From the NCBI RefSeq assembly GCF_030068475.1, contig NZ_JAQOSP010000148.1, positions 56,991 to 88,990 on the forward strand: a stretch of 32,000 bases of DNA, read 5' to 3'. The position numbers and the translations under genes are program-made. The number at the start of each line of letters is the position of its first letter. The stretch's first letter is position 1. Source of the DNA: Roseofilum acuticapitatum BLCC-M154. Lineage in GTDB: Bacteria > Cyanobacteriota > Cyanobacteriia > Cyanobacteriales > Desertifilaceae. The notes under the pieces are model-generated. The model saw nothing but the letters and a program-made list of their open reading frames with translations. It was not told the origin of the DNA and ran no database searches. Of the stretch, positions 1 through 28,848 are shown piece after piece.

Positions 1-1027
1 CAACAATATCCGACTTCAGAGAATACTGAACGATCAAGACATAGAAGACGGACAAAAAGACAACTACAGGAGTAATACTGTACTGACTACTTAACTGTTG
101 AACCGCAGACCAGGTACTAGCAGGGATTTGAAAAGATTTATGGTTACTTTCAAAGTCCGATGATAGCTGCAAATTATCAACGGGTACTGGATATAAAGTC
201 GAAACACCAGTTAGCTGCCGTTGCCAATAATTGAGTCCTTTTTCTAATACCTCGCCCTGCAACCACTGTCGCTGCCAAACCGCATAATCTCCATATTGAA
301 TCTCCAACTGGGCTAAAGGAGATGGCTGTTTCTCCAAAGAGGCATCATATAAAGTTAGCAGTTCCTGAGTTAATAAATTAATCGATAAACCATCACCAAT
401 AATATGATGATACACTAAAATCAAAGCGCCATCTGTATCGCCAAACCGTAGCCATTTCAAATTGCATAATGGAGCTTGAGCTAAATCAAAAGACCGTCGA
501 GATTCTTGGGCAATATTTTCCTCAATCAGATCGGCTATTTCAGATCCGCTTAAATTTGAATGATCTTCAACAACAATACTCACCTCTAGCTTAGGAATAG
601 ATACCTGAACTAAAGCCCCTTCAACTAAAGCAAAACTCGTTCTAAGTATCTCATGGCGATCGATAATTTGCTGCCAACTCTTTTGCAGCACTTGAATATT
701 GATTAAACCTTGAAGACGCACTGCTTGACATAGGTTAAGCGTTGCCTTTTCTGACATTAACTGGGCTACCGACCACAGACGCTCTTGCTGATAGGAGAGA
801 GTAAAGTTTCTATCCCTATGAACAGGTACTAACGGTCTAGAGTTAACATTAATACTACTACTTCTTTGCTGTAACAATTGTAGTAACTCAATCTTATTTT
901 CAGATAAAGTCTGTCTAATTTCTGCTGTTAAGGAACCCTTGGGAGCATTAACTTTGAGTTCATCACCCTCTGCCCAAACTTTAATACCTTGGCTAGAGAT
1001 TTTATATAAAAATTCTTTAATATTCAT
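1..1027 (-). CDS. Non-ribosomal peptide synthetase, 5' part only (N-terminal beta-hairpin/TubC-type docking domain + condensation domain); continues beyond left window edge
   Basis: My own minus-strand translation from the ATG at nt 1027-1025 reads MNIKEFLYKISSQGIKVWAEGDELKVNAPKGSLTAEIRQTLSENKIELLQLLQQRSS..., which resembles a docking domain. Condensation-domain sequence follows, with LSYQQERLW and the catalytic core HHIIGDG (nt 389-409). The frame stays open to nt 1. It is missing from the ORF track, probably because it is edge-truncated. It starts 42 nt after the upstream PKS stop on the same strand. Confidence 0.85.
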   Translation of the reverse strand, partial: MNIKEFLYKISSQGIKVWAEGDELKVNAPKGSLTAEIRQTLSENKIELLQLLQQRSSSINVNSRPLVPVHRDRNFTLSYQQERLWSVAQLMSEKATLNLCQAVRLQGLINIQVLQKSWQQIIDRHEILRTSFALVEGALVQVSIPKLEVSIVVEDHSNLSGSEIADLIEENIAQESRRSFDLAQAPLCNLKWLRFGDTDGALILVYHHIIGDGLSINLLTQELLTLYDASLEKQPSPLAQLEIQYGDYAVWQRQWLQGEVLEKGLNYWQRQLTGVSTLYPVPVDNLQLSSDFESNHKSFQIPASTWSAVQQLSSQYSITPVVVFLSVFYVLIVQYSLKSDIV

Positions 1028-1069
1028 GACTTAAGCATCCCCCATTTTTGATTCTTTATGATTCTGTTT

Positions 1070-4000
1070 TTATAAAGTTATTTCTTCTCGCTCTTCGTCT
1101 TCATCTATATTTTGAGCCTGCGAAATCGTTAAATCCGTAATTTGTTCGAGCAAAATTTTCTCCCCCACTAAGTTTGCTATTTGAACAATACTAATGCCAT
1201 CAATTATCCTTTCTAGAGGAAGATCGAATTCTAGTTCCCTCAGCAATAAGTTTCGCAATTCAACTGCCATTAATGAATCAACACCCATACTCGTTAAAGA
1301 TTGCTTGACTTCAATTTTAGCAGCAGTCATGCCCAAAAGAGAAGAAGTTTTATTGATCAGATAATTGAGTAATATTTTTTCTCCTTCCTCCGGTGGAGCA
1401 GATTTCAACTCTTCTAGAAGTTGTTGTGTATTTTCAGTTTCTGTTACTGATGAAATGAAAGCTTCCAAATAGGGCATTTTCTGCCCACCTAGTAACTCCC
1501 TTAAAAATTTTGACCAGTTAACGGGGAATACCCCGACTTGGGTTTGAGCGCCAGATAACAATGACTCTAATACTTGCATTCCCTGTTCGGGTTTAATAGG
1601 AACTATCCCAACGGTTTCCATTCGATTCTGATGTTCGCTGGCTAAACGAGCAGCCATGCCTCCTGCTGCCCAAGCCCCCCAGTTGATAGCCAATCCAGGT
1701 AATCCCATACCACGACGATAGTGAGCTACTGCATCCATAAAACCATTGGCAGCCGCATAGTTGCCTTGACCAGAATTCCCCAACATCGAAGCCATTGATG
1801 AGAAACAGACAAAGAAATCTAAGGGTAAATCTTTGGTCAGTTGATGCAAATGCCAAGTCCCTTGCACTTTAGGTTTCATCACTTTGGTGAACTGCTGCCA
1901 ACTGAGGTTTTGCACTAAGCCATCATCCAATACTCCCGCAGCATGAATCACTCCTTTGAGCGGGAACAAGGAAGTCTGTATCTGCTGGAAAATTTGAGCT
2001 ACATCTTTTTCAGTAGAGACATCACCTAACAATACCTTGACTGATGCTCCTGCTGTTTCTAACTCTTCGATAATTTTTTGTGCAGTTTCATTGGGAGATC
2101 TACGTCCAGTTAAAACAATTTGCTTGGCTCCCTTGGATACCATCCATTGGGCGACTTCTAAACCTAAAGCTCCTAACCCTCCTGTAATTAAATAACTTGC
2201 GTCTGGTTTGATTGATTTTTGGTCTTCTCCAGTTTCTGGCAGAGAAACGACTACTTTCCCAATATGCTTACCTTGTTGCATATATCGGAAGGCAGCTTTG
2301 ACTTCTGTACTTGGAAATACTTTATAAGGTAATGCTTTCAGTTTTCCTTGCTCGTACTGCTGGTTCAATGCTTCTGAAAATTCCGTAATTAAACTGGGTT
2401 GTTGTTGGATTGTCACTCCAATATCAAAAGGCAAGTATTCAACATCTGGGCGCTTTTCCATCACCTTTTGTTTATCCCAAATCCCTATTTTGCCAATTTC
2501 TACAAATCTACCTTGGGGAGCTAAAACAGCAAAACTCTTATCAATGAAGTCTCCATTGAGACTATTTAAAACGATATCTACACCTTTTCCCTGAGTAAGA
2601 CTCATCATTTCATCTGCAAACTCTAAAGTACGGGAATTCATAATATGTTTGACACCCATAGACTTGAGAAATTCCCACTTGGGAGGACTTGCTGTAGCGA
2701 ATACTTCTGCTCCTGCTTGGAGAGCAATTTGAACTGCTGCTTGCCCTACACCACCAGCCGCAGCATGAATTAATACTCGCTCTCCTGGCTGAATTTTAGC
2801 CAAGTGTTGTAACCCATAATAAGCTGTGGCAAAAGTCAAGGGTAAAGTGGCTGCTTCCGTAAAGCTCAAATTTTTCGGTTTAGCCATGACTAACTCAGCA
2901 GAAGTAGTAACAAAGCTACTAAAGCCATTGTGAACTATAGCCATCACTTCATCTCCCACCTGCCACTGAGAGACATTTTCTCCGACAGATGCAATACAAC
3001 CTACACATTCTAAGCCAAAGTTAAGTTGAGCTACGTCAGTAACACCTAATACCTGAACATAATAGTCTTTCAGTAAACCCAAGGAGTTGAGTACATCTCG
3101 GAAGTTTAAACCTGCGGCTTTGACTTCAATTTCTACTTCATTGGCTTGTGGAGTCCGGCGCTGCATTACTTGCCAGTTAAGGTTATCTATCAATCCATAT
3201 TCAGACAACTTCAATTCCACCGGTTGACTTTCTAATCCTAATTTTTCTTCTGAGCTAATTTTATGCTTTTGTTGTCGGATTAATCGTGCTACATAACGAA
3301 CTCCCTGACGAATTGCTATTTGGTCTTCATTATTTTGAGAAAATACTTCATCGACCAAACTGGGGAGCATTTCGGCAAAATTAGATTTGGGATCTAAGTC
3401 TATTCGTCCACACTTTAATTCTGGATGTTCTAGGTTAATCACACGCCCTAGTCCCCATAAACTTCCTTGTTGGGGTTGCACTACTTCTGCTGCATCCAAT
3501 ACACCCTGAGTCCCTTGAGTCACTAACCACATTGGTACTGTATGGGTTAATCGAGCTTGAATTAAGGCTTGCACTAAATGTAAAACTGTTGCACAACCAA
3601 GTTGTTGAGCTGTTTGTAAATCTACGGTTCCCGATAAATCAGTTTCATTTAGAGTCCATAAGTGCAAAATGCCCTGAATATCAGAATTATCTTGGAGCAG
3701 TTGAGAGAAGTGTTCGGCAACAGTGGGATTGATTTGATAATGTTGAGCATCTAACTGCTGATACTCGGATTTTTCTGGGGATACCCAAATATATTGCTGT
3801 CCTTTTTGTTGTAAATGTTGTCCGATAGACTCTACCCATTCATCAGTAAGCGCAAATACTAACCATTTACCAGAGGCGTTTTCATTAGATTTTGCGGTTT
3901 CTGTTAAAGATTGAGGTTCCCAGTTGATTTCGTAATACCAATCACTTAAATCTGAATCTAGAGTCATTAGTAATGTTTTGGGATTCGCTTTCCTACCCTC

Positions 4001-7000
4001 AAAACCCTTAACCTCAGCTACTAATTTTCCAGTTTGGTCAAATAATTGTATTTCGGCTTTGAGCAGTTTTTCTTCTGACGATCCTTCTTTTAATCCACGA
4101 GTATAACACCAAAGGAAACTATTCTCAGGGCGTTGATAAAAGGTAAACTTCTCTATACTGAAGGGCACAAAGGTTTCATGTTGGTCACCAGCAAGACTGA
4201 GGTTCAGTGCAGCTACTGACTGGAAACATGAGTCAAGTAAGGCGGGATGTATTTGATACTTTGCTGCATCTAAGATGGTCTCAGGGACTTTCATTTGACA
4301 CAGGATTTCTCCCTCTCCTAACCAGACTTGGTGTATCCATCTAAAACTTTGCCGTAATTGAACTTGTCTATCCCAAAGATTCTGGTAAATTTCTGTGCTT
4401 TCTATTTTTTGAGGACAACGAGATTGAATGACTTCTATTGTTTCTAGAGACTGTTTTTGCGAAGTATTAGTAGGAGCAATTTTTCCGGTAGCATGGACTG
4501 CCCAAGAATCACTATCAGATCTGTCAAAACTAATGACTTGAAATGAATAGTAGCTATTCTGTGGAGTAAGAGCTACCTGAACATTACGCATTCCTTGTTC
4601 GGGAATGGCTAAGGCTTGGGGAAACAGAATATCTTCCAGTTGACATCCGGTTGCAGAAAATGTGAGAGAGGCACTTGCTAACAAGAGAGAAATGTGACTC
4701 GCACCAGGGACGACAACTTTTTCATATATTCGGTGGTCTGCTAAAAAGGGTAAGGCATGGGTGCTAAACTCAGATTCAAAAAAGATATCTTTTGATAACG
4801 GAGATTGAAACTTTCGATCAATTAGGGGATGAAGTTTAGGTATAGAGATGGCTTGAGAATTGCCTGTTTCTACCCAATACCTTTCCCTCTGAAATGGATA
4901 AGTTGGCAAGATGACTTTCTGACGAACATAATCTCGGTCAAACCCTGACCAATCTACTTTAGCGCCCCGTACATACAACTGCCCTAAACTTGAGAGGATC
5001 TGTTGCCATTCATCGACTCCAGGACGTAGGGATGGTAACCAAATGCCGTTATTTTCTGGTAAACATTGACGAGCCATTCCTAACAATATGGGCTTGGGGC
5101 CAATTTCTAGGAATAATTCATATCCTTGCTCATTTAGAGTGTTCATACTCTGGGCAAATTTGACGGGTTGTCGGACATGGTTGACCCAATATTGAGCTGT
5201 AGCTATGTCTGAACCGACTTTTTGACCGGTGATATTTGATATGATGGGTAGTCGAGGCTGACTATAGGTGACTTGTTGAGCTACTGCTTCAAATTCTGCC
5301 AACATTGGCTCCATGAGTGGGGAATGGAAAGCATGGGAGACTTGTAAAGGCTTGGTTTTAATGCCTTGCGATTCTAATTGATTACAGAGGGTTGCGATCG
5401 CCTCACTATACCCGGAAATCACTATACTCTCCGGCCCATTTATGGCTGCAATTGTTACCTGTGAACTATACTCGCCTATAGCTTCTCTGACTTGAGCTTC
5501 TGATGCTAACAAAGACACCATTGCACCACCAGGGGGTAATTGTTGCATTAACCGTCCCCGCATGGCAATTAATTTTAGACCATCTTCTAAACTCAATACT
5601 CCTGCCACAGTTGCTGCTACATATTCCCCCACACTATGACCCATGACTGCATTGGGTTTAATTCCCCAAGATTCCCATAACTGAGCTAGGGCGTATTCTA
5701 GAGCAAATAAAGCTGGTTGGGTATAAGCAGTTTGGTCTAATACACTAGACTTTTGTTCATCTTGAGGGTAGAGAACTTCTAATAGAGGGACTTCTAGATA
5801 AGCTTGTAAAATTTGGTCGCATCGATCTAAAGCTTGACGGAAAGTTGGCACAGTTTCATAGAGTTGCTTTCCCATATTCACATACTGGGAACCTTGACCG
5901 GTGAAGAGGAACGCTATTTTTGGACTTTGGCTACTTCCATCGAGTTGTCCAGAAAATCCTCCTAGGATTTCTTTCTTCGTTTTCCAGTCCACCAGTTTTT
6001 CTGTTAATTCCTTTTGCTCAGAAGCAAGAATTGCTAGTCGATGATTAAAATGCGCTCTACCTGTATTAGCTGTATAACATATATCTGCTAGGGGTAACTC
6101 TGAATGGTTTTCTAAATAGTTTTGATAACGACTAACTAAATTTTCTAAAGCTTGTTCTGTTTTAGCTGAGAGCGTCAAGAGATGAATAGGACGTTTTAAG
6201 TCATCTTCACGGTTGTCTTCTCTTGGTGCTTCTTCTAAAATGATGTGAGCATTAGTGCCACTAATTGCAAAAGAGCTTACTCCTGCCACTCTTTTGTCTG
6301 CTGATGAGAGCCAAGGGGTGAGTTGAGTCGGGACTTTTAAAGGTATATTCTCCCAATCAATATAGGGACTAGGATGAGTAAAATGAAGATTAGGGGTGAT
6401 TTGTTGATGTTGTAGTTGCAAAACGACCTTGATCGCACCAGCAATGCCAGCAGCAGCTTCTAAATGACCGATATTCGTTTTAACTGAAGCGATATGCAAT
6501 GGATTTTGGCGATCGCGTCCCGGCCCAAATACGCTACTTAAAGCTCTCACTTCCATCGGGTCTCCAAGGGAAGTTCCCGTACCATGAGCTTCCACATAAC
6601 TCACTTGAGCCGCTTCTACTTTGGCTGCTTTCAGAGCTTGCTGAATCAGTTTTTCCTGAGCCAGTTTATTCGGTACAGTCAGTCCGCTACTCGGCCCATC
6701 ATGATTAACCGCAGAACCCCGAATGACTGCCTGGATATTGTCCCCATCCTTGAGTGCATCCGATAAACGCTTCAGCACCAGAATGCCACATCCCTCTCCC
6801 CGACCATAACCATCAGCAGCAGCATCAAACGTTTTACACTTGCCATCGGGTGATAGGGCCTTTAATTTTGAGAGTGCAGTGGTCACTTGAGGAGAGAGAA
6901 TGAGTTGAACCCCTCCAGCTAAAGCCAGATTAGATTCACCCTGACGCAGACTCTGACAAGCTTCATGTATAGCAACCAAAGACGATGAACAAGCGGTATC

Positions 7001-22429: not shown

Positions 22430-24766
22430 TTAATCGGCAATCGAAAAACCTCTACGGGTTCGTTTTAGTGGAGCTTCCTGCACTTGAAAAATGATCCGAT
22501 CGCGTTCTTCTCCTACTGCCGTTTTCACCTCTAGCTCCCAACTGCCGAGTTTCATGTTCCAAAATAGAGAATTGGTTGTAGTTGTGGCGATTTTATCCCC
22601 ATTTAACCACCATTCTACCGGTTCTTCGAGTTTACCCGCTAGTTTGAATTCTAGGCGATTGTCCTGTTCTGCTTGGGGAGAGAGCAAGAAATAATCATCA
22701 TTTGAAGGAAAGACAATTCTTAGGTTTCCTTGCCATTGGTTTTGGGGCTGTTGGGAGAGCCATTCATTATATTCTGGAGGTAGTTCTAGGGGCTGGTTTT
22801 GAGTGTTTGATGTTTGGATATCTTCGGGATAGAGATATTCTAAAACAATGGCAGAAGGACAGGTAGGAGTGGGTTTGAAACCTGCCCCTACATCGGGTTG
22901 AAATTGGGATAAATTCTCCCCCATAATTTGTCCGGTAACGGCACAAATGGGGTGCTGAACCAAACCGGATGGGGGTGCAAAATCAGCAGGTTCTCTAGTT
23001 TCGTGTAAATGTTGCATAATGCGATGCCAGAGGGGGGCTGCACCCATAACTCCGGAGACTTGTTGCATGGCGGTTCCGTCAAAGTTGCCCACCCAGGTGG
23101 CAACGGTATAATCGGTGCTAAAGCCGACAGTCCAGGTATCGCGATAGTCGGAGGATGTACCGGTTTTGACGGCAGTGGGAAAGGGCAAGTTTAATACTGA
23201 GTCTACCCCAAAACTGGTGGCACGGGCATGGCGATCGCCGAGCATCTCCCGCACCAGTTCCCAAGATGTCGTCTCTGGGGGCGTTTTTGCTGCTTCCGTT
23301 TCTTCGCCAAAATAGGTGACTAAAGGCACGGCTTTACCATGATGGGCCAATCGCAAATAAGCCCTCGCCAACTCCCACAAGCTGACCTCCCCACTGCCCA
23401 AAGTTAAGCCTAAACCATAGTATTCTGGCTCATGGCTTAGGTGGGTGAATCCCAACTCTCGCAAGTGATTGAGGAATACGGGAACCCCCACTTCTTCCAA
23501 CACGCGGACGGCGGGCACATTCAGGGAATTAGCCAGGGCTAAACGCACCCGCACCGGCCCTAAAAAGGTTTCGCTATAGTCCACGGGTTTGTATAGTTTC
23601 GCTCCAGGTATGGCGTAAGTGGTGGGCACGTCTGCGAGGATGGTTTGGGGACGGATAACCTGTTGTTCGAGGGCGAGTTGGTAGAGGAAGGGCTTCAGGG
23701 TTGAACCCGGTTGGCGCAAAGCTTGTACGCCATCATTTTGCCCCTGTTGGCTGTCGTTAAAGTAGTTGGGAGACCCCACATAGGCAAGGACTTCTCCGGT
23801 ATGATTATCAATGACCAGGGCGGCTGCATGGTGGACTCGTTGGGGTGCGAGAGCGTCCACGACTTGCTGCACTTGAGTGGCGACAAACTGCTGGAGGGCG
23901 CTATCTAGGGTGGTGCGGATGGTTCCTCCTTGGGTGCTGGGGAGCTGCTGGGCAACCCAGAAGAGGAAATGGGGAGCGGCGAGGATTCCCTGTTGTCGCG
24001 ATCGCAGATAAACTTGTTCACTATAAGCCCGTTCTGCGTCTAATTCCGTAATCATTTTATCCGCCACCATTCGGTCTAAAACATAACGCTGCCGGGTTTT
24101 CAGGGCTTGCCAATGGTGGTAGGGGTCGAGGTCGATGGGGTCATTGGGCAGGGATGCCAGCAGGGTCGCCTGTGCCAGATTTAACTCCGCAGCCGGAAGC
24201 CCAAAATAGCTCCGAGCCGCCGCTTCCACCCCATAAAGGTTACTCCCCATGGGCAGGCGGTTAATATACGCAGCCAGAACTGTATCCTTATCCATTCCCG
24301 CACTTAAGCGCCAAGATGTCCAAATCTCACCCACTTTATGGGGGAGAGTGCGGGGAGTTGGATGGAGCATCCGCGCCAGTTGCATCGTAATAGTAGAAGC
24401 TCCGCTCACAATTTCTCTCGCTTGAAGCGCTTCTAAAATAGCACGAGAAACCGCCATAAAATCCACCGAACCATGTTGATAATAGCGCTTATCTTCCGCC
24501 GCAATAATCCCTTGAATAAAGTAGGGGGAAATCTCATCCAGGGGAACCACCATCGTATGGTCTTGGTCGCGGGTGAGCAGGGTTCCCAAGGGCAGTCCAT
24601 GACGGTCTTCAAAGGTGAGTGCGCCATCAGTTTGGGCGATATCTTGGGCGCGAATGGGGATGAGATAGGGTACAGAGCGGAGAGTTAAGCAGAGTAAAAT
24701 TACACCGATGAGGATGCGGAAGGGGAGTTTATATTGTCCATGCCATAATTTACGGAAGTATTGCAT
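22430..24766 (-). CDS. pbpC: Penicillin-binding protein 1C (bifunctional glycosyltransferase/transpeptidase)
   Basis: 778 aa with an N-terminal membrane anchor. GT51 motifs: AAEDKRYYQHGSVD, GASTITMQLARM. Transpeptidase motifs: GSTLKP (SxxK), NSLN (SxN), KTGTS (KTG). The length and the long C-terminal beta-rich extension are typical of the PBP1C subclass. Confidence 0.85.
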   Translation of the reverse strand: MQYFRKLWHGQYKLPFRILIGVILLCLTLRSVPYLIPIRAQDIAQTDGALTFEDRHGLPLGTLLTRDQDHTMVVPLDEISPYFIQGIIAAEDKRYYQHGSVDFMAVSRAILEALQAREIVSGASTITMQLARMLHPTPRTLPHKVGEIWTSWRLSAGMDKDTVLAAYINRLPMGSNLYGVEAAARSYFGLPAAELNLAQATLLASLPNDPIDLDPYHHWQALKTRQRYVLDRMVADKMITELDAERAYSEQVYLRSRQQGILAAPHFLFWVAQQLPSTQGGTIRTTLDSALQQFVATQVQQVVDALAPQRVHHAAALVIDNHTGEVLAYVGSPNYFNDSQQGQNDGVQALRQPGSTLKPFLYQLALEQQVIRPQTILADVPTTYAIPGAKLYKPVDYSETFLGPVRVRLALANSLNVPAVRVLEEVGVPVFLNHLRELGFTHLSHEPEYYGLGLTLGSGEVSLWELARAYLRLAHHGKAVPLVTYFGEETEAAKTPPETTSWELVREMLGDRHARATSFGVDSVLNLPFPTAVKTGTSSDYRDTWTVGFSTDYTVATWVGNFDGTAMQQVSGVMGAAPLWHRIMQHLHETREPADFAPPSGLVQHPICAVTGQIMGENLSQFQPDVGAGFKPTPTCPSAIVLEYLYPEDIQTSNTQNQPLELPPEYNEWLSQQPQNQWQGNLRIVFPSNDDYFLLSPQAEQDNRLEFKLAGKLEEPVEWWLNGDKIATTTTNSLFWNMKLGSWELEVKTAVGEERDRIIFQVQEAPLKRTRRGFSIAD

Positions 24767-24809
24767 AATTCACCCATAAAGTATTGACGTTCAGAAGGAG
24801 CGCATCATC

Positions 24810-25259
24810 ATGATTCATTACAGAGCAGCAGAGCAAACTGATTTAGAGATCATTTTACAACTGGTGCAAGAATTTCATCACAGTGAAAAACTAGGGTTTG
24901 ATGAAAAACTCGATGCTCAGGCTTTAGAAGAGTTAATCAGCGATTCATCTTTAGGGAAACTGTTGCTGATTCAACAAGACGATGAAATCATTGGCTATGT
25001 TATTATAGCTTGGGGTTATAGTCTGGAATTCAGAGGCAGAGATGCATTTATCGATGAATTTTATCTGAGACCCCAGTACCGTCAACAGGGCATCGGGACT
25101 CAAACTTTATCATTGGTCGAGAAGACCTGTCAAGAGTTAGGAATACAAGCGCTGCATCTAGAAGTTGATTTTGAAAATCCTAATGCACAACGTCTTTATC
25201 ACCGAGTTGGATATCAACGCCATAATCGTTTTTTGATGACGAAAATATTAGATAATTAG
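24810..25259 (+). CDS. GNAT family N-acetyltransferase
   Basis: 149 aa. Acetyl-CoA binding motif A: LRPQYRQQGIGTQTL. C-terminal segment NAQRLYHRVGY. GAAGGAG ribosome-binding site upstream. Confidence 0.85.
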   Translation: MIHYRAAEQTDLEIILQLVQEFHHSEKLGFDEKLDAQALEELISDSSLGKLLLIQQDDEIIGYVIIAWGYSLEFRGRDAFIDEFYLRPQYRQQGIGTQTLSLVEKTCQELGIQALHLEVDFENPNAQRLYHRVGYQRHNRFLMTKILDN

Positions 25260-25313
25260 ATCGGGCGCAGTTCACATCCTAAGCTGTGTTACTATAGCAA
25301 GTAGAATTTACAG

Positions 25314-25319
25314 TATAAT
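25314..25319 (+). promoter_or_regulatory. Candidate -10 box (TATAAT) for the 92-aa/PIN/RHH cassette
   Basis: Perfect TATAAT 29 nt upstream of the ATG at 25349, with GAGG in between. There is no convincing -35. Confidence 0.3.
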
Positions 25320-25348
25320 ATTGAAGGCAATCTAGAGGTTAATGATTT

Positions 25349-25627
25349 ATGGCACGACAAGTTGAACAAGCAGTACGCCAAGCGAAAGCTTACTTTGAAC
25401 AACTTTTGCCTCAGTTGGGGGAAGGGATTGAAGACTTGAGACTCGAAGAAGTGGAATTTTCCGAAGATAAATGGCTGATTACTTTGGGATATACCCGTCC
25501 AACTAAAATCAAGCCTAATCCCCTATTACCTGTTACCGATAACCGGCAATATGAACGAGTCTATAAGATATTTACAATTAACTCAAGAACGAATGAAGTT
25601 GAATCGATGAAAATCCGAGAGTTATGA
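25349..25627 (+). CDS. Hypothetical 92-aa protein (helix + three predicted beta-strands), first gene of a coupled three-gene cassette
   Basis: ATG preceded by GAGG. The stop overlaps the next gene's start (ATGA, 4-nt overlap at 25624-25627). I recognise no family. The layout EEVEFSEDKWLITLGY...YKIFTINSRTNEVESMKI is vaguely PepSY-like. Confidence 0.6.
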   Translation: MARQVEQAVRQAKAYFEQLLPQLGEGIEDLRLEEVEFSEDKWLITLGYTRPTKIKPNPLLPVTDNRQYERVYKIFTINSRTNEVESMKIREL

Positions 25628-26130
25628 TCGATGAAATTGCCGAATTTTATAAACAATATCGACACAAAGGAATTTTGATTGATACGAATATTCTGATTCT
25701 CTGGGTCGTAGGTACAGTCAACCGAGAACGGATTTCTCGATTTAATCGAACCAAAACGTTTACGCCCAATGACTATGATATATTATCACAACTCCTTGAT
25801 TATTTTAGCAGAGTCGTTACTACTCCCCATATTCTGACAGAAGTCAATAGCCTGATGAATACATTGGGAGAACCAGAACGCTCTACTGGCCTACAAATCT
25901 TAGGTGAAGCCCTACAAAATTCCGATAAAGTTCATGAGGAATATCGAGAAAGTTCCCAAATTATGCAGAATAATCAATTTTATAAGTTTGGCTTAACAGA
26001 TTGTGGAATTATGGAAGTTTGCCAAGGTCGATATTTGGTTTTAACTGATGATTTTAAGTTGGCGGGTTATTTATTTTCACAAAATATAGATACGATTAAT
26101 TTTAATCATATTCGAGGATTATTAAAGTAA
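25624..26130 (+). CDS. PIN-domain ribonuclease-like protein (VapC-like, enlarged)
   Basis: 168 aa with a canonical PIN acidic quartet in the expected contexts: D20 (GILIDTNILI), E73 (HILTEVNSL), D126 (GLTDCGI), D142/D143 (VLTDDFKL). It overlaps both neighbours (ATGA upstream, TAATG downstream). Confidence 0.8.
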   Translation: MIDEIAEFYKQYRHKGILIDTNILILWVVGTVNRERISRFNRTKTFTPNDYDILSQLLDYFSRVVTTPHILTEVNSLMNTLGEPERSTGLQILGEALQNSDKVHEEYRESSQIMQNNQFYKFGLTDCGIMEVCQGRYLVLTDDFKLAGYLFSQNIDTINFNHIRGLLK

Positions 26131-26471
26131 TGAAGTTAAAGATGAGCCAAGTAGAACTCCAATTACCAGAAACACTCCACCAACAGTTAACCCAGTTAGC
26201 GGAGAATGAAGGTGTTTCGTTAAACCAATATATCGTTTATGCACTCACGCGCCAAGTTACTATGGCGTATACAGTTCAAGCAATACCTACTGATGAAGTA
26301 AACCAACAGGAGCAGAAATTTCAAGCTTTACTGAACAAGTTAGGACAAGCATCTTTAACGGAGGTAAAATCGGTTTTAGAGCGGCGAGAAGTGGTTGACC
26401 CAGAACCAGAATTAAGTCCTGACATTATTGCCCGTTTTCAGCAGCGTATTAATGATGCTTCCAAGGGTTGA
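26130..26471 (+). CDS. Ribbon-helix-helix (CopG/Arc/HicB-C-like) DNA-binding protein, putative antitoxin/regulator
   Basis: 113 aa. The N-terminal RHH pattern is VELQLPETLHQQLTQLAENEGVSLNQYIVYALTRQV (beta strand, helix, helix). The ATG shares 1 nt with the PIN gene stop (TAATG). Confidence 0.7.
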   Translation: MKLKMSQVELQLPETLHQQLTQLAENEGVSLNQYIVYALTRQVTMAYTVQAIPTDEVNQQEQKFQALLNKLGQASLTEVKSVLERREVVDPEPELSPDIIARFQQRINDASKG

Positions 26472-26548
26472 TTTTACCACGAATGAGTGCTGATATGGTA
26501 TTTTAAATTGGATTGTCCTGAATTGACCTGAAAAAAACAGAGAAAGGT

Positions 26549-28168
26549 TTATTTTTTGGCTACTTTTTCTCGCTGAAAGGTTAACTTCATTTCCGGTAAG
26601 TCGGAGACTTCCAGACGGCGCTTGATTTCTACTTTGGCGGTTTCAAAGGTGGGAAAGTCATCACTCGGCCCAAAGGGAATGCCAAAACCAGAACCGACTT
26701 CTAGGATTTTGATATTCACTTTCGCAGGCACTAGCACCTTACGGGGAGAAACATAAAATTTATTGATATATCCTACTCCATTAGCCCAGCGATTCACAGA
26801 GGCAAAATCTTGTAGATATTCTTCGACTAATAGCCAAAATTGTCGGTCAACGCTGGCTAAAAGATATAGGATTTCAAATCGCTCTGCACTAGCGTGTCTT
26901 GCATGATTATCTATCAATCCGTACGCTCTATTATAGAGATCACGTTCCTGTAAAGGTTGATCGGAGTTTTTTGAATTATTATCAATTCTTCTTCCTTCAC
27001 GATCAAATGAGAAATTGTATTCTCCATCTTCTCTCCATTTTTCCCGTTTGTAAGGCTTCTTCAAGTCAGCACTAAAACTTTTGATAAACAAACCAATTCT
27101 CTCAGCACGGTAATCGAAGCGTATTGCACCCTCATTACTATATTTTTGTGGATCGATATCTCGTTTGTGCAAGAGATCTTTTACGGTTATAGTACCTGAC
27201 TTTTTGGAGCGGCTGCCATAGCCTCGCTTACCGGTTTTATAATCTTCACATAGGGTGGTTATTTTATTTTTGATTTTATCCTCATCAATCGGTTCATTAA
27301 AGAAAATCTTGATCAAATCCGTATCATAAGGTCTCATGCGCTTAAACAGGCGACTATAGAAATCTGTATCATCGGTCTCTGATTGCATTTGACTTAATGA
27401 TTCAGGAGTTACGGCTTTTATGGATATTCCCGCTAAATCAACATCATGATATTTCCGGATATCTTGTGTTTTTTGTTGAGAGTAGAAATAATCAAATGAA
27501 TACAGTTCTATGGCATAACCGTTGACATATAAACGATAGGCATGAAGAGAACGTACTGATTCCCAATTGGAAGCATAGGCTTTACGATAATTCAATGATG
27601 CCTTGATAAATGGGCTTTCTTTTGTATACCCAAGACTGAAATTATATTTTTCTTTGAAGGCAGTTTGATCTAGAGAAATGTGAATGATCTCTAGGGATAG
27701 CAACTTCTTGTGAAACAACCAATAATCATAATCTAAATCGACAATATCTTCGCGGGGAGGTTCAATACCGAGAATGAAGGCAAAATCGGAAATGGCGACT
27801 AGGGTTTCTCGTAAGAGGGTTTCGCTGGGTAATACTTTTTTGGCTTTGACTGGACTCTCGTTTAAGTGGGGATGATATTTTTCAATGCGCTGCTTCTCGA
27901 CTTCATCAAGTCGATCTTTGCTCACTAACTCATAGTAAATGGTAAAGTGTGTTTTCTTCTGTGCTTCGAGTTGAGCGATGCGATGATGGGTTTTGCCTTG
28001 CCAGCGTTTGCAGATGTTTTTGGCTTGGCCAATGTACCACACCTTGTGAGCTTGATCGAGAACATAATAAATCCCGGAAGACTCTGGAAGCAGCTCTTTG
28101 GTTTGTAGGGGGATATGGGGGAGTTGGAGAAGATCGCGATCGCCTTTCATTTCGCAAATATGTATCAA
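26549..28168 (-). CDS. GIY-YIG nuclease-domain protein with a roughly 430-aa C-terminal region of unknown function
   Basis: N-terminal GIY-YIG motifs: SSGIYYV (GIY 32-34), VWYIGQA (YIG 45-47), Arg in NICKRW, then EKQRIEKYHPHLN (Glu/Asn). I find no recognisable motif in the remainder. The ORF-track start at 28168 is a TTG; the first ATG is at 28150 (MKGDRDLL...). Confidence 0.8.
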   Translation of the reverse strand: MIHICEMKGDRDLLQLPHIPLQTKELLPESSGIYYVLDQAHKVWYIGQAKNICKRWQGKTHHRIAQLEAQKKTHFTIYYELVSKDRLDEVEKQRIEKYHPHLNESPVKAKKVLPSETLLRETLVAISDFAFILGIEPPREDIVDLDYDYWLFHKKLLSLEIIHISLDQTAFKEKYNFSLGYTKESPFIKASLNYRKAYASNWESVRSLHAYRLYVNGYAIELYSFDYFYSQQKTQDIRKYHDVDLAGISIKAVTPESLSQMQSETDDTDFYSRLFKRMRPYDTDLIKIFFNEPIDEDKIKNKITTLCEDYKTGKRGYGSRSKKSGTITVKDLLHKRDIDPQKYSNEGAIRFDYRAERIGLFIKSFSADLKKPYKREKWREDGEYNFSFDREGRRIDNNSKNSDQPLQERDLYNRAYGLIDNHARHASAERFEILYLLASVDRQFWLLVEEYLQDFASVNRWANGVGYINKFYVSPRKVLVPAKVNIKILEVGSGFGIPFGPSDDFPTFETAKVEIKRRLEVSDLPEMKLTFQREKVAKK

Positions 28169-28194: not shown

Positions 28195-28848
28195 TCAGTT
28201 TCCTTGCGTCGGCGATCGCCAGTAATTCCTCCAGATCTTAGCCGCAGCTAAAGGTTGGGGATTCTTCACACATTCTGCTAAAAAATCAATGTCAATCTCT
28301 GGCAATAACTCACTGTTTTCAATCCGTTCATACCCATGATTGGATTCTGATTCCACTGGAAGATTGGAGCGCAAATGATAGACAGAAAACTCGCCATTTT
28401 GCCAAAACCAGACTTCAGGCACTTGCAAGCGACGATACACTTCTAACTTATTAATCCCACCATGGGTAACCACCACTTCAATCGCTAAATCGGGAACATC
28501 TTTATCTGTGCCAAAACAGTATCCTTCATCCGCTTCTAGTCCTGCTCGTTTTGCTTCCTGTTTCAGGGTAGTGGAGCCAAAGGGAAAATATTCGATATCG
28601 GCTTCTAAGAAGTAAAGTTCTAGTAAATTTCCAATCCGAGTTTTTTCCGTTTCATGGCGGCGAGAGGTGGACATGATTTCTAAAACTCCATCTAAATAAG
28701 TGACGCGATAACCGCCATTGTCTCCGATGATATTCAGCAAGGTTTCATAGTATTCCCAAGTGGCGCTATTGGTCAAATAGCGGTCTTCAGAATCCTGGTG
28801 GGATAAGGGAGGTTCGGGAAATAGGGTATTAAATTTCAATGCCAGCAT
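28195..28848 (-). CDS. Uma2 family (DUF820) PD-(D/E)xK-like endonuclease
   Basis: 217 aa with the typical Uma2 layout: N-terminal ...TWEYYETLL, YLDGVLEIMSTSRRHE, PDLAIEVVVT, and a C-terminal segment LQVPEVWFWQNGEFSVYHL. The family is highly expanded in cyanobacteria. Confidence 0.85.
   Translation of the reverse strand: MLALKFNTLFPEPPLSHQDSEDRYLTNSATWEYYETLLNIIGDNGGYRVTYLDGVLEIMSTSRRHETEKTRIGNLLELYFLEADIEYFPFGSTTLKQEAKRAGLEADEGYCFGTDKDVPDLAIEVVVTHGGINKLEVYRRLQVPEVWFWQNGEFSVYHLRSNLPVESESNHGYERIENSELLPEIDIDFLAECVKNPQPLAAAKIWRNYWRSPTQGN

Follow-up and report, generated by a model that had tools for sequence, protein, structure and literature searches.

A conserved PIN-nuclease gene pair of cyanobacteria and an antitoxin gene probably grafted behind it in Roseofilum acuticapitatum

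Do three small genes that overlap end to end form one system, or has an unrelated gene come to lie behind a conserved pair? This question is raised by a locus in Roseofilum acuticapitatum BLCC-M154, within a 32,000-nt stretch (contig NZ_JAQOSP010000148.1, positions 56,991 to 88,990 of the forward strand) that was analysed as a whole and is hereafter called the window. Its three consecutive genes encode a small protein without a named family (A92), a PIN-domain nuclease (PIN168) and a ribbon-helix-helix (RHH) protein (RHH109). A first-pass annotation, made from the sequence alone, had described them as a translationally coupled cassette and as an atypical tripartite toxin-antitoxin (TA) or defence module. 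The three open reading frames (ORFs) and the two stop/start overlaps on which that description was built, ATGA between A92 and PIN168 and TAATG behind PIN168, are all found in the sequence. The locus as a whole, on the other hand, is probably a composite, in which the A92–PIN168 pair is followed by an unrelated, stray antitoxin gene from the PIN_3–HicB(RHH) family.

The first line of evidence concerns the pair. Relatives of PIN168 were collected by scanning a genome set with a single representative of each species; of the 513 stretches returned, the 80 best loci were used. An A92 homologue stands immediately upstream of the PIN168 homologue in 78 of these 80 cyanobacterial loci, and one of the two loci lacking it is cut by a contig end. 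An RHH homologue, searched in the same loci, was found in none of the 80. Of the 74 loci in which the junction could be measured, 64 have the 4-nt ATGA overlap. Between pairs of loci, the identity of A92 rises and falls with that of PIN168 (r = 0.82, Mantel p = 0.001), A92 diverging faster (mean identity across loci 54% vs 66% for PIN168). Distant A92 relatives (38–48% identity), for which a look-up of cluster members returned no annotation, likewise precede genes for proteins of 165–166 aa; of three such downstream proteins, the two that were compared are PIN168 homologues with 36–42% identity, and one distant A92 relative is an orphan. From genus to genus, the pair mostly has unrelated flanking genes (the 294 flank ORFs fall into 157 clusters), and some genomes carry two copies, arranged in tandem in L071 and found as L013/L075 and as L019/L044, each couple from a single assembly. 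The tandem pairs of L071 (Okeania) lie about 3 kb apart, at 287–1041 and 3747–4480. A92 and PIN168 are thus a widespread, uncharacterised and conserved bicistronic module, translationally coupled and present in hundreds of cyanobacterial species, most likely one of the TA or abortive-infection RNase type.

The upstream partner had been noted as having neither a DNA-binding fold nor a recognisable family, and searches of family and structure databases agree. Against Pfam, NCBIfam, PADLOC and PHROGs, A92 gave nothing significant (best PDC-M15B, E 0.019, and phrog_8142, E 0.016), although it belongs to a large, unnamed family, for which a profile search among 1.84 billion representatives found 3627 clusters at 50% identity (E ≤ 1e-3). 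Its AlphaFold2 model, with a predicted local distance difference test score (pLDDT) of 84.5, consists of a long N-terminal helix packed against a four-stranded antiparallel sheet. Foldseek returned no significant structural match to this model in PDB and BFVD, where the closest shapes are generic curved sheets of designed cystatin/NTF2-like proteins (E ≥ 0.003), and no DNA-binding fold was found among the Pfam and NCBIfam hits or the structure matches. Weak PepSY matches occur in five of 24 family members, the best with E 0.008. Conservation is highest in the motifs LRLEEVE, W-ITLG and R-YK and in the C-terminal SMKIR.

The downstream partner is a genuine but divergent PIN fold with catalytic residues. 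Its family comprises 506 homologous clusters at 90% identity, nearly all of 163–170 aa; all relatives with a named organism are cyanobacterial, and their source names are "PIN domain-containing protein" or, for many members annotated by the Joint Genome Institute (JGI), "rRNA-processing protein FCF1". Pfam PIN (PF01850) matches PIN168 with E 0.029 and 15.4 bits, under the gathering score of 23.6, and reaches E < 0.1 for only five of 19 family members. On the other hand, an alignment of the same number of diverse members has D20, E73, D126 and D143 invariant and D142 nearly so, which bears out the acidic quartet proposed earlier, and the family carries IDTN and LTDDF motifs. In Foldseek searches of PDB, the AlphaFold2 model (pLDDT 86.8) finds as its best matches almost exclusively PIN domains, including AF0591, SMG6, Nmd4 and VapCs of M. 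tuberculosis and Pyrococcus, at a probability of 1.0, E values of only about 1e-3 and template modelling scores of 0.43–0.66; a search of the family profile against PDB sequences detected no relevant solved structure. Conservation patterns and knowledge of the PIN family make a Mg2+-dependent endoribonuclease of the PIN type the most likely identity of PIN168.

The unusual length of PIN168 had been attributed to an insertion of roughly 50 residues between the second and third acidic residues. In canonical VapC enzymes, the spacing between the glutamate and the third acidic residue is about 50–60 residues. The distance from E73 to D126 is 53 residues, comparable to the 47–51 residues of a PIN_3 comparator (inferred equivalents E50 to D97/D101), so that no such insertion exists. 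The extra length lies instead in an N-terminal helix (residues 2–12) and in a longer segment between D20 and E73 (53 vs about 38 residues), which contains an additional short helix (34–39) plus a loop. Positions 1–105 of the Pfam PIN profile cover PIN168 residues 17–138, leaving about 17 surplus residues.

The second line of evidence concerns the family to which the third gene belongs. The RHH assignment holds: the protein matches Pfam HicB (PF05534) with E 6e-7 and 29.6 bits, above the cut-off of 21, and also NCBIfam YlcI/YnfO and a PHROG Arc-like repressor. The HicB match is confined to profile positions 24–51 of 51, the C-terminal RHH part; the N-terminal RNase-H-like domain of HicB is unmatched and HicA is absent from the locus, which does not qualify as HicAB. 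The RHH family counts 1164 clusters, in which all homologues are 107–112 aa long and all begin with MSQ/MSR at the position of the window's ATG 26142, not of ATG 26130. A C-terminal extension of about 65 residues, pointed out earlier as a peculiarity, is present and is the norm in this family.

In a metagenome scan of 80 RHH loci, a PIN_3 gene, whole or as a remnant, lies directly upstream of RHH in 72, and PIN168 or A92 was found in none of the 80. Likewise, a PIN_3 gene (PF13470) encoding 144–146 aa is directly upstream in every RHH context that was examined individually (L081–L085, L175), namely those of R. reptotaenium (two assemblies and a Logan contig), Gloeocapsopsis dulcis, Nostocales LEGE 11386 and the P0145 contig. 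RHH109 shares 77–90% identity with PIN_3-linked copies, the P0145 protein being the closest at 90%, and agrees with them in start position and length. In Gloeocapsopsis dulcis (L084:2563–2998), the PIN_3 gene upstream of RHH is broken into ORFs of 96 and 70 aa by a frameshift or as a pseudogene, which is a further example of a toxin decaying while its antitoxin is retained. Toxin-first PIN3/HicB pairs are also listed for Synechocystis 6803 as predicted type II systems (for example sll0624/sll0624a and slr5116/ssr5117) (PMC4963859). Because the family order is PIN_3 followed by the HicB-type RHH gene, an RHH gene downstream of a PIN gene is in its native orientation, and the reversed order that had been taken as atypical is nothing of the kind. 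What the window lacks is the PIN_3 gene itself, which was found neither immediately upstream of RHH, where PIN168 stands, nor anywhere else in the window. A toxin swap by homologous recombination was considered and is unsupported because the PIN168 and PIN_3 families are not close; hhalign aligns them over the beta-1 IDTN motif only. The gene order GNAT–PIN_3–RHH in L084, which resembles synteny with the window, is a coincidence, the two GNAT proteins being unrelated (E 0.33).

The third line of evidence is the junction behind PIN168. By blastn, window positions 26129–26464 are 84.5% identical to positions 2988–3323 of the R. reptotaenium PIN_3–RHH locus (L082), and this homology starts 13 nt ahead of ATG 26142. 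The window's TGAAGTTAAAG-ATGAGCC is aligned there to GGAAGTTAATA-ATGAGCC, that is, to the last codons and stop of PIN_3 followed by the start of RHH. Since the homology begins only 13 nt before the ATG, the RHH gene would have arrived with a sliver of the PIN_3 gene and without the promoter or operator of the PIN_3 module. By this alignment, the window's copy of RHH has been relocated and is still preceded by about 11 nt from the 3′ end of a PIN_3 gene. The TAATG at 26128–26132, in which the PIN168 stop overlaps ATG 26130, is present as had been described; the "MKLK" extension that produces it is a translated relic of the junction. As a start of the RHH gene, ATG 26130 is doubtful, and the sequence points to the family-typical ATG 26142 instead.

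The fourth line of evidence comes from the same site in other Roseofilum genomes, compared in the order PBP – GNAT – [ ] – GIY-YIG protein. On L086, a contig from a coral metagenome whose PIN protein is also that of Roseofilum sp. Guam, A92 and PIN168 occur without RHH, with only 29 nt in place of the window's 434-nt RHH segment. R. reptotaenium has A92 alone, and the break falls exactly at the A92/PIN boundary. In BLCC_M91, A92 and the first 137 nt of PIN168 run straight into the final 7 nt of RHH, followed by the 3′ flank of that gene; as this scar retains both the 5′ stub of PIN168 and the 3′ end of RHH, the triad must formerly have been present there. Among Roseofilum, the triad is therefore restricted to the window lineage, plus the BLCC_M91 deletion scar. 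PIN has been lost with A92 retained in two congeners (L087, L090), which is how decay should proceed if the harmful one of the two is PIN. The whole site is a hotspot of indels. BLCC_M91 also carries a BsoBI-type endonuclease and an N6/N4 methylase (L090:1278–3674) at the position of the window's GNAT gene, which marks the interval from PBP to the GIY-YIG gene as a hotspot for the exchange of defence-type cargo.

Purifying selection acts on all three genes. The ratio of nonsynonymous to synonymous substitution rates (dN/dS) is 0.07–0.16 for A92, 0.23 for PIN168 and 0.26–0.30 for the RHH gene, and PIN_3-linked RHH copies compared with each other give 0.32.

The surroundings of the pair in other genera add a link to phage defence. 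In 27 of the 80 A92–PIN168 loci, the pair sits between an HmaC/DUF499 ATPase accompanied by DUF7680 and an HmaB/DUF1156 methylase, with PADLOC matches of E 2e-91 for HmaC and E 1e-80 for HmaB. Among these loci are L003 (1–7340), L008, L009, L011, L012, L016, L021, L028, L055, L059, L061 and L069. In several Microcoleus loci (L002, L004, L005, L007), the Hma genes persist only as fragments around an intact pair. Many of the embedded loci have a conserved ORF of 127–132 aa between DUF7680 and A92 (L001:3060–3440, with homologues in L002–L009, L032, L049 and L055); in L011 and L059 its homologues follow the pair instead, and it has no Pfam or PADLOC match. A literature search on DUF7680 found no papers. 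These DUF499-centred, BREX-related systems were renamed in a 2026 study in Nucleic Acids Research, which reported HEPN, PIN and Schlafen RNases embedded in them as "back-up suicidal effectors" (PMC12839542).

The window copy of the pair is stand-alone, with the GIY-YIG and Uma2 proteins as its neighbours, and remnants of Hma, HmaB, HmaC, DUF7680 or PIN_3 were searched across the window and not found. The three genes (Table 1) form one co-oriented, closely packed string that is very likely carried on a single transcript, in agreement with the operon first proposed. The stop of the preceding GNAT gene and the start of A92 are 89 nt apart. A consensus scan of the leader found no strong sigma-70 site, its sole repeat is the 9-nt palindrome TTACTATAG, and a search upstream of A92 found no convincing operator-like inverted repeat. 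Scanning between PIN168 and the RHH gene likewise gave no convincing promoter or terminator, and no terminator-like site was found in the 3′ flank of RHH.

Table 1. Features of the three-gene locus (window coordinates)
Feature	Position	Strand	Description
Leader upstream of A92	25260–25348	+	Intergenic; presumed to hold the operon promoter
A92	25349–25627	+	92 aa; unnamed family; conserved upstream partner of PIN168; putative inhibitor/antitoxin
ATGA stop/start overlap A92/PIN168	25624–25627	+	Read in the sequence
PIN168	25624–26130	+	168 aa; divergent PIN-domain nuclease; putative RNase toxin/effector
RHH ORF, long form	26130–26471	+	113 aa from the alternative start ATG 26130
Relic of PIN_3 toxin gene 3′ end, graft junction	26131–26141	+	Indicated by alignment to L082
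RHH109	26142–26471	+	HicB-type/YlcI-type ribbon-helix-helix antitoxin, apparently displaced from a toxin-first PIN_3–RHH module
RHH gene 3′ flank	26472–26548	.	Convergent with the end of the GIY-YIG gene

The HIP1-free, AT-rich patch remarked on earlier is real: HIP1 (GCGATCGC) is absent from 24006–28135 in a scan of the window, and GC content is 36–41% around the cassette vs 45–56% in nearby DNA. The gap by itself is weak, supportive evidence, because the window holds a second and longer HIP1-free stretch of 5.4 kb at 1–5393. The TA- or defence-type context that had been suggested is supported. On the minus strand, positions 26549–28168 encode a 539-aa protein with a weak N-terminal GIY-YIG match (E 1e-4) and otherwise unannotated, a 513-aa counterpart of which is conserved in other Roseofilum genomes and mostly deleted in BLCC_M91. 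Positions 28195–28848, also on the minus strand, encode a Uma2-family putative endonuclease of 217 aa (PADLOC candidate PDC-S17, E 2e-78), and two HIP1 sites border the start of its gene.

Taken together, these findings suggest the following course of events. A92 would most likely be a stoichiometric protein inhibitor of PIN168, an antitoxin or immunity partner acting by direct binding, and its release or loss would free PIN168, leading to growth arrest or abortive infection. Within Hma/DUF499–DUF1156 (BREX-related) clusters, the pair may serve as a back-up RNase effector. Within one sublineage of Roseofilum, a PIN_3-family antitoxin gene copy, without its toxin or operator, would have been joined directly behind the PIN168 stop, where RHH109 is now probably a co-transcribed passenger, a solo antitoxin.

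Several observations weigh against this account. A PIN168 homologue of Nostoc minutum (L080, 4001–4507) is solo, with no A92 upstream. Within Roseofilum, A92 is unusually conserved (92% identity vs 73% for PIN168), and it remains under purifying selection even where PIN has been lost; A92 could thus have a function of its own. Its lack of a DNA-binding domain leaves the usual autoregulation of type II systems unexplained. As for the third gene, RHH may have been gained in the clade of the window and BLCC_M91 or else lost in the other lineages, and an intact gene that abuts the PIN168 stop, with the dN/dS value given above, may have a functional role in the operon.

Some of these points are shared by an unlikely alternative, in which the pair is a housekeeping RNA-processing heterodimer, with PIN168 as an FCF1/Nob1-like nuclease and A92 as its substrate adaptor or activator rather than its inhibitor. 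Such a role would suit the wide distribution, with relatives in 513 species-level genomes, the FCF1 label given by JGI to many members, the strong purifying selection on both A92 and PIN168, the retention of A92 where PIN is lost, and the folded, globular shape of A92, which has no disordered tail to wrap around a toxin. It is hard to reconcile with presence/absence polymorphism between congeneric Roseofilum genomes, with neighbourhoods that are not conserved, with duplicate and tandem copies, with an AT-rich, HIP1-poor setting, and with the 27 of 80 loci that lie within Hma/DUF499–DUF1156 defence clusters.

It is rather improbable that the graft is a working hybrid, in which RHH autoregulates the A92–PIN168 operon or cross-neutralises a PIN_3 toxin elsewhere, and in which A92–PIN168 is an undescribed, cyanobacteria-wide toxin/immunity family with a globular, PepSY/cystatin-like inhibitor, recruited by Hma/BREX-related systems as a back-up effector. 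If true, the hybrid would be a natural antitoxin capture connecting two TA families.

The chances of a genuine three-part system resembling omega-epsilon-zeta, with A92 as antitoxin, PIN168 as toxin and RHH as the DNA-binding autoregulator of the operon, are slim. It would account for an A92 without any DNA-binding fold, for an RHH gene directly adjoining the PIN168 stop, neither a promoter nor a terminator having been detected in between, for the intactness of that gene under purifying selection, and for an arrangement that existed in at least two Roseofilum lineages. Yet neither partner is ever met at the other's loci (RHH in none of 80 A92–PIN loci, A92 or PIN168 in none of 80 RHH loci), the regular partner of the RHH family is PIN_3, and the graft came without an upstream operator because homology begins 13 nt before the ATG; moreover, the close relative L086 has the pair without an RHH gene, and PIN and RHH were deleted together in BLCC_M91. 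The tripartite system is not supported because the triad is not conserved as a unit, which the first-pass annotation had itself named as grounds for refutation; the neighbourhood survey found the triad in none of the 80 A92–PIN genomes and in none of the 80 RHH metagenome loci. Least probable of all is that RHH is a decaying, functionless remnant, coupled to PIN168 by accident when a deletion or recombination took away its PIN_3 toxin: the PIN_3 3′-end relic at the junction, the indel hotspot and the absence of the cognate toxin from the window agree with this, but the ORF is not shortened and shares 90% identity with a homologue linked to PIN_3, and its dN/dS of 0.26–0.30 is not above the 0.32 between two PIN_3-linked copies.

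With the tripartite idea failing, the locus is not a new class of system, and what remains is a PIN module of TA type with an uncharacterised partner family that lacks a DNA-binding domain. As a family pair it is large: the PIN gene occurs in at least 513 species genomes, A92 accounts for about 3600 clusters (50% identity), and neither protein has a curated family. Should A92 directly inhibit PIN, the antitoxins of PIN-type TA modules would gain a new fold, and the Hma-embedded pair is a concrete candidate for a back-up RNase effector in cyanobacterial phage defence. The locus also appears to record, at nucleotide resolution, the grafting of a solo antitoxin gene behind a foreign toxin, and it cautions that close gene overlap does not prove a functional unit.

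Among the closest known systems are type II VapBC modules. Like them, A92–PIN168 is a conserved bicistronic operon in which a small gene lies upstream of the PIN gene with a 4-nt overlap; the four acidic PIN residues are invariant in PIN168, the copies are patchy, multi-copy and set in variable genomic contexts, and of the two genes it is the upstream one that evolves faster across genera. Unlike VapB, A92 has none of the DNA-binding folds (RHH, AbrB, helix-turn-helix, Phd), being instead a compact helix plus four-strand sheet without a Pfam family, and PIN168 falls under the Pfam PIN threshold, with a helix added at the N terminus and more residues from the first to the second acidic position. 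With the toxin-first PIN_3/HicB-type RHH pairs known from Synechocystis (PMC4963859), the locus shares RHH109, a full-length member of their antitoxin family, but the window has no PIN_3 toxin, of which about 11 nt of the 3′ end are left, and the unrelated PIN168 stands upstream. The omega-epsilon-zeta system is similar in having three co-oriented genes that include a putative antitoxin that does not bind DNA, a toxin and an RHH protein; there, however, omega comes first, whereas the window RHH comes last, derives from the antitoxin of another family and has no operator, in a triad that recurs in none of the 80 A92–PIN loci and none of the 80 RHH loci. As to the Hma or DUF499-centred, BREX-related systems, the window pair differs in having no adjacent HmaB, HmaC or DUF7680, whereas the placement of A92–PIN168 in 27 of 80 relatives fits the pattern of embedded PIN/HEPN back-up effectors described for them (PMC12839542).

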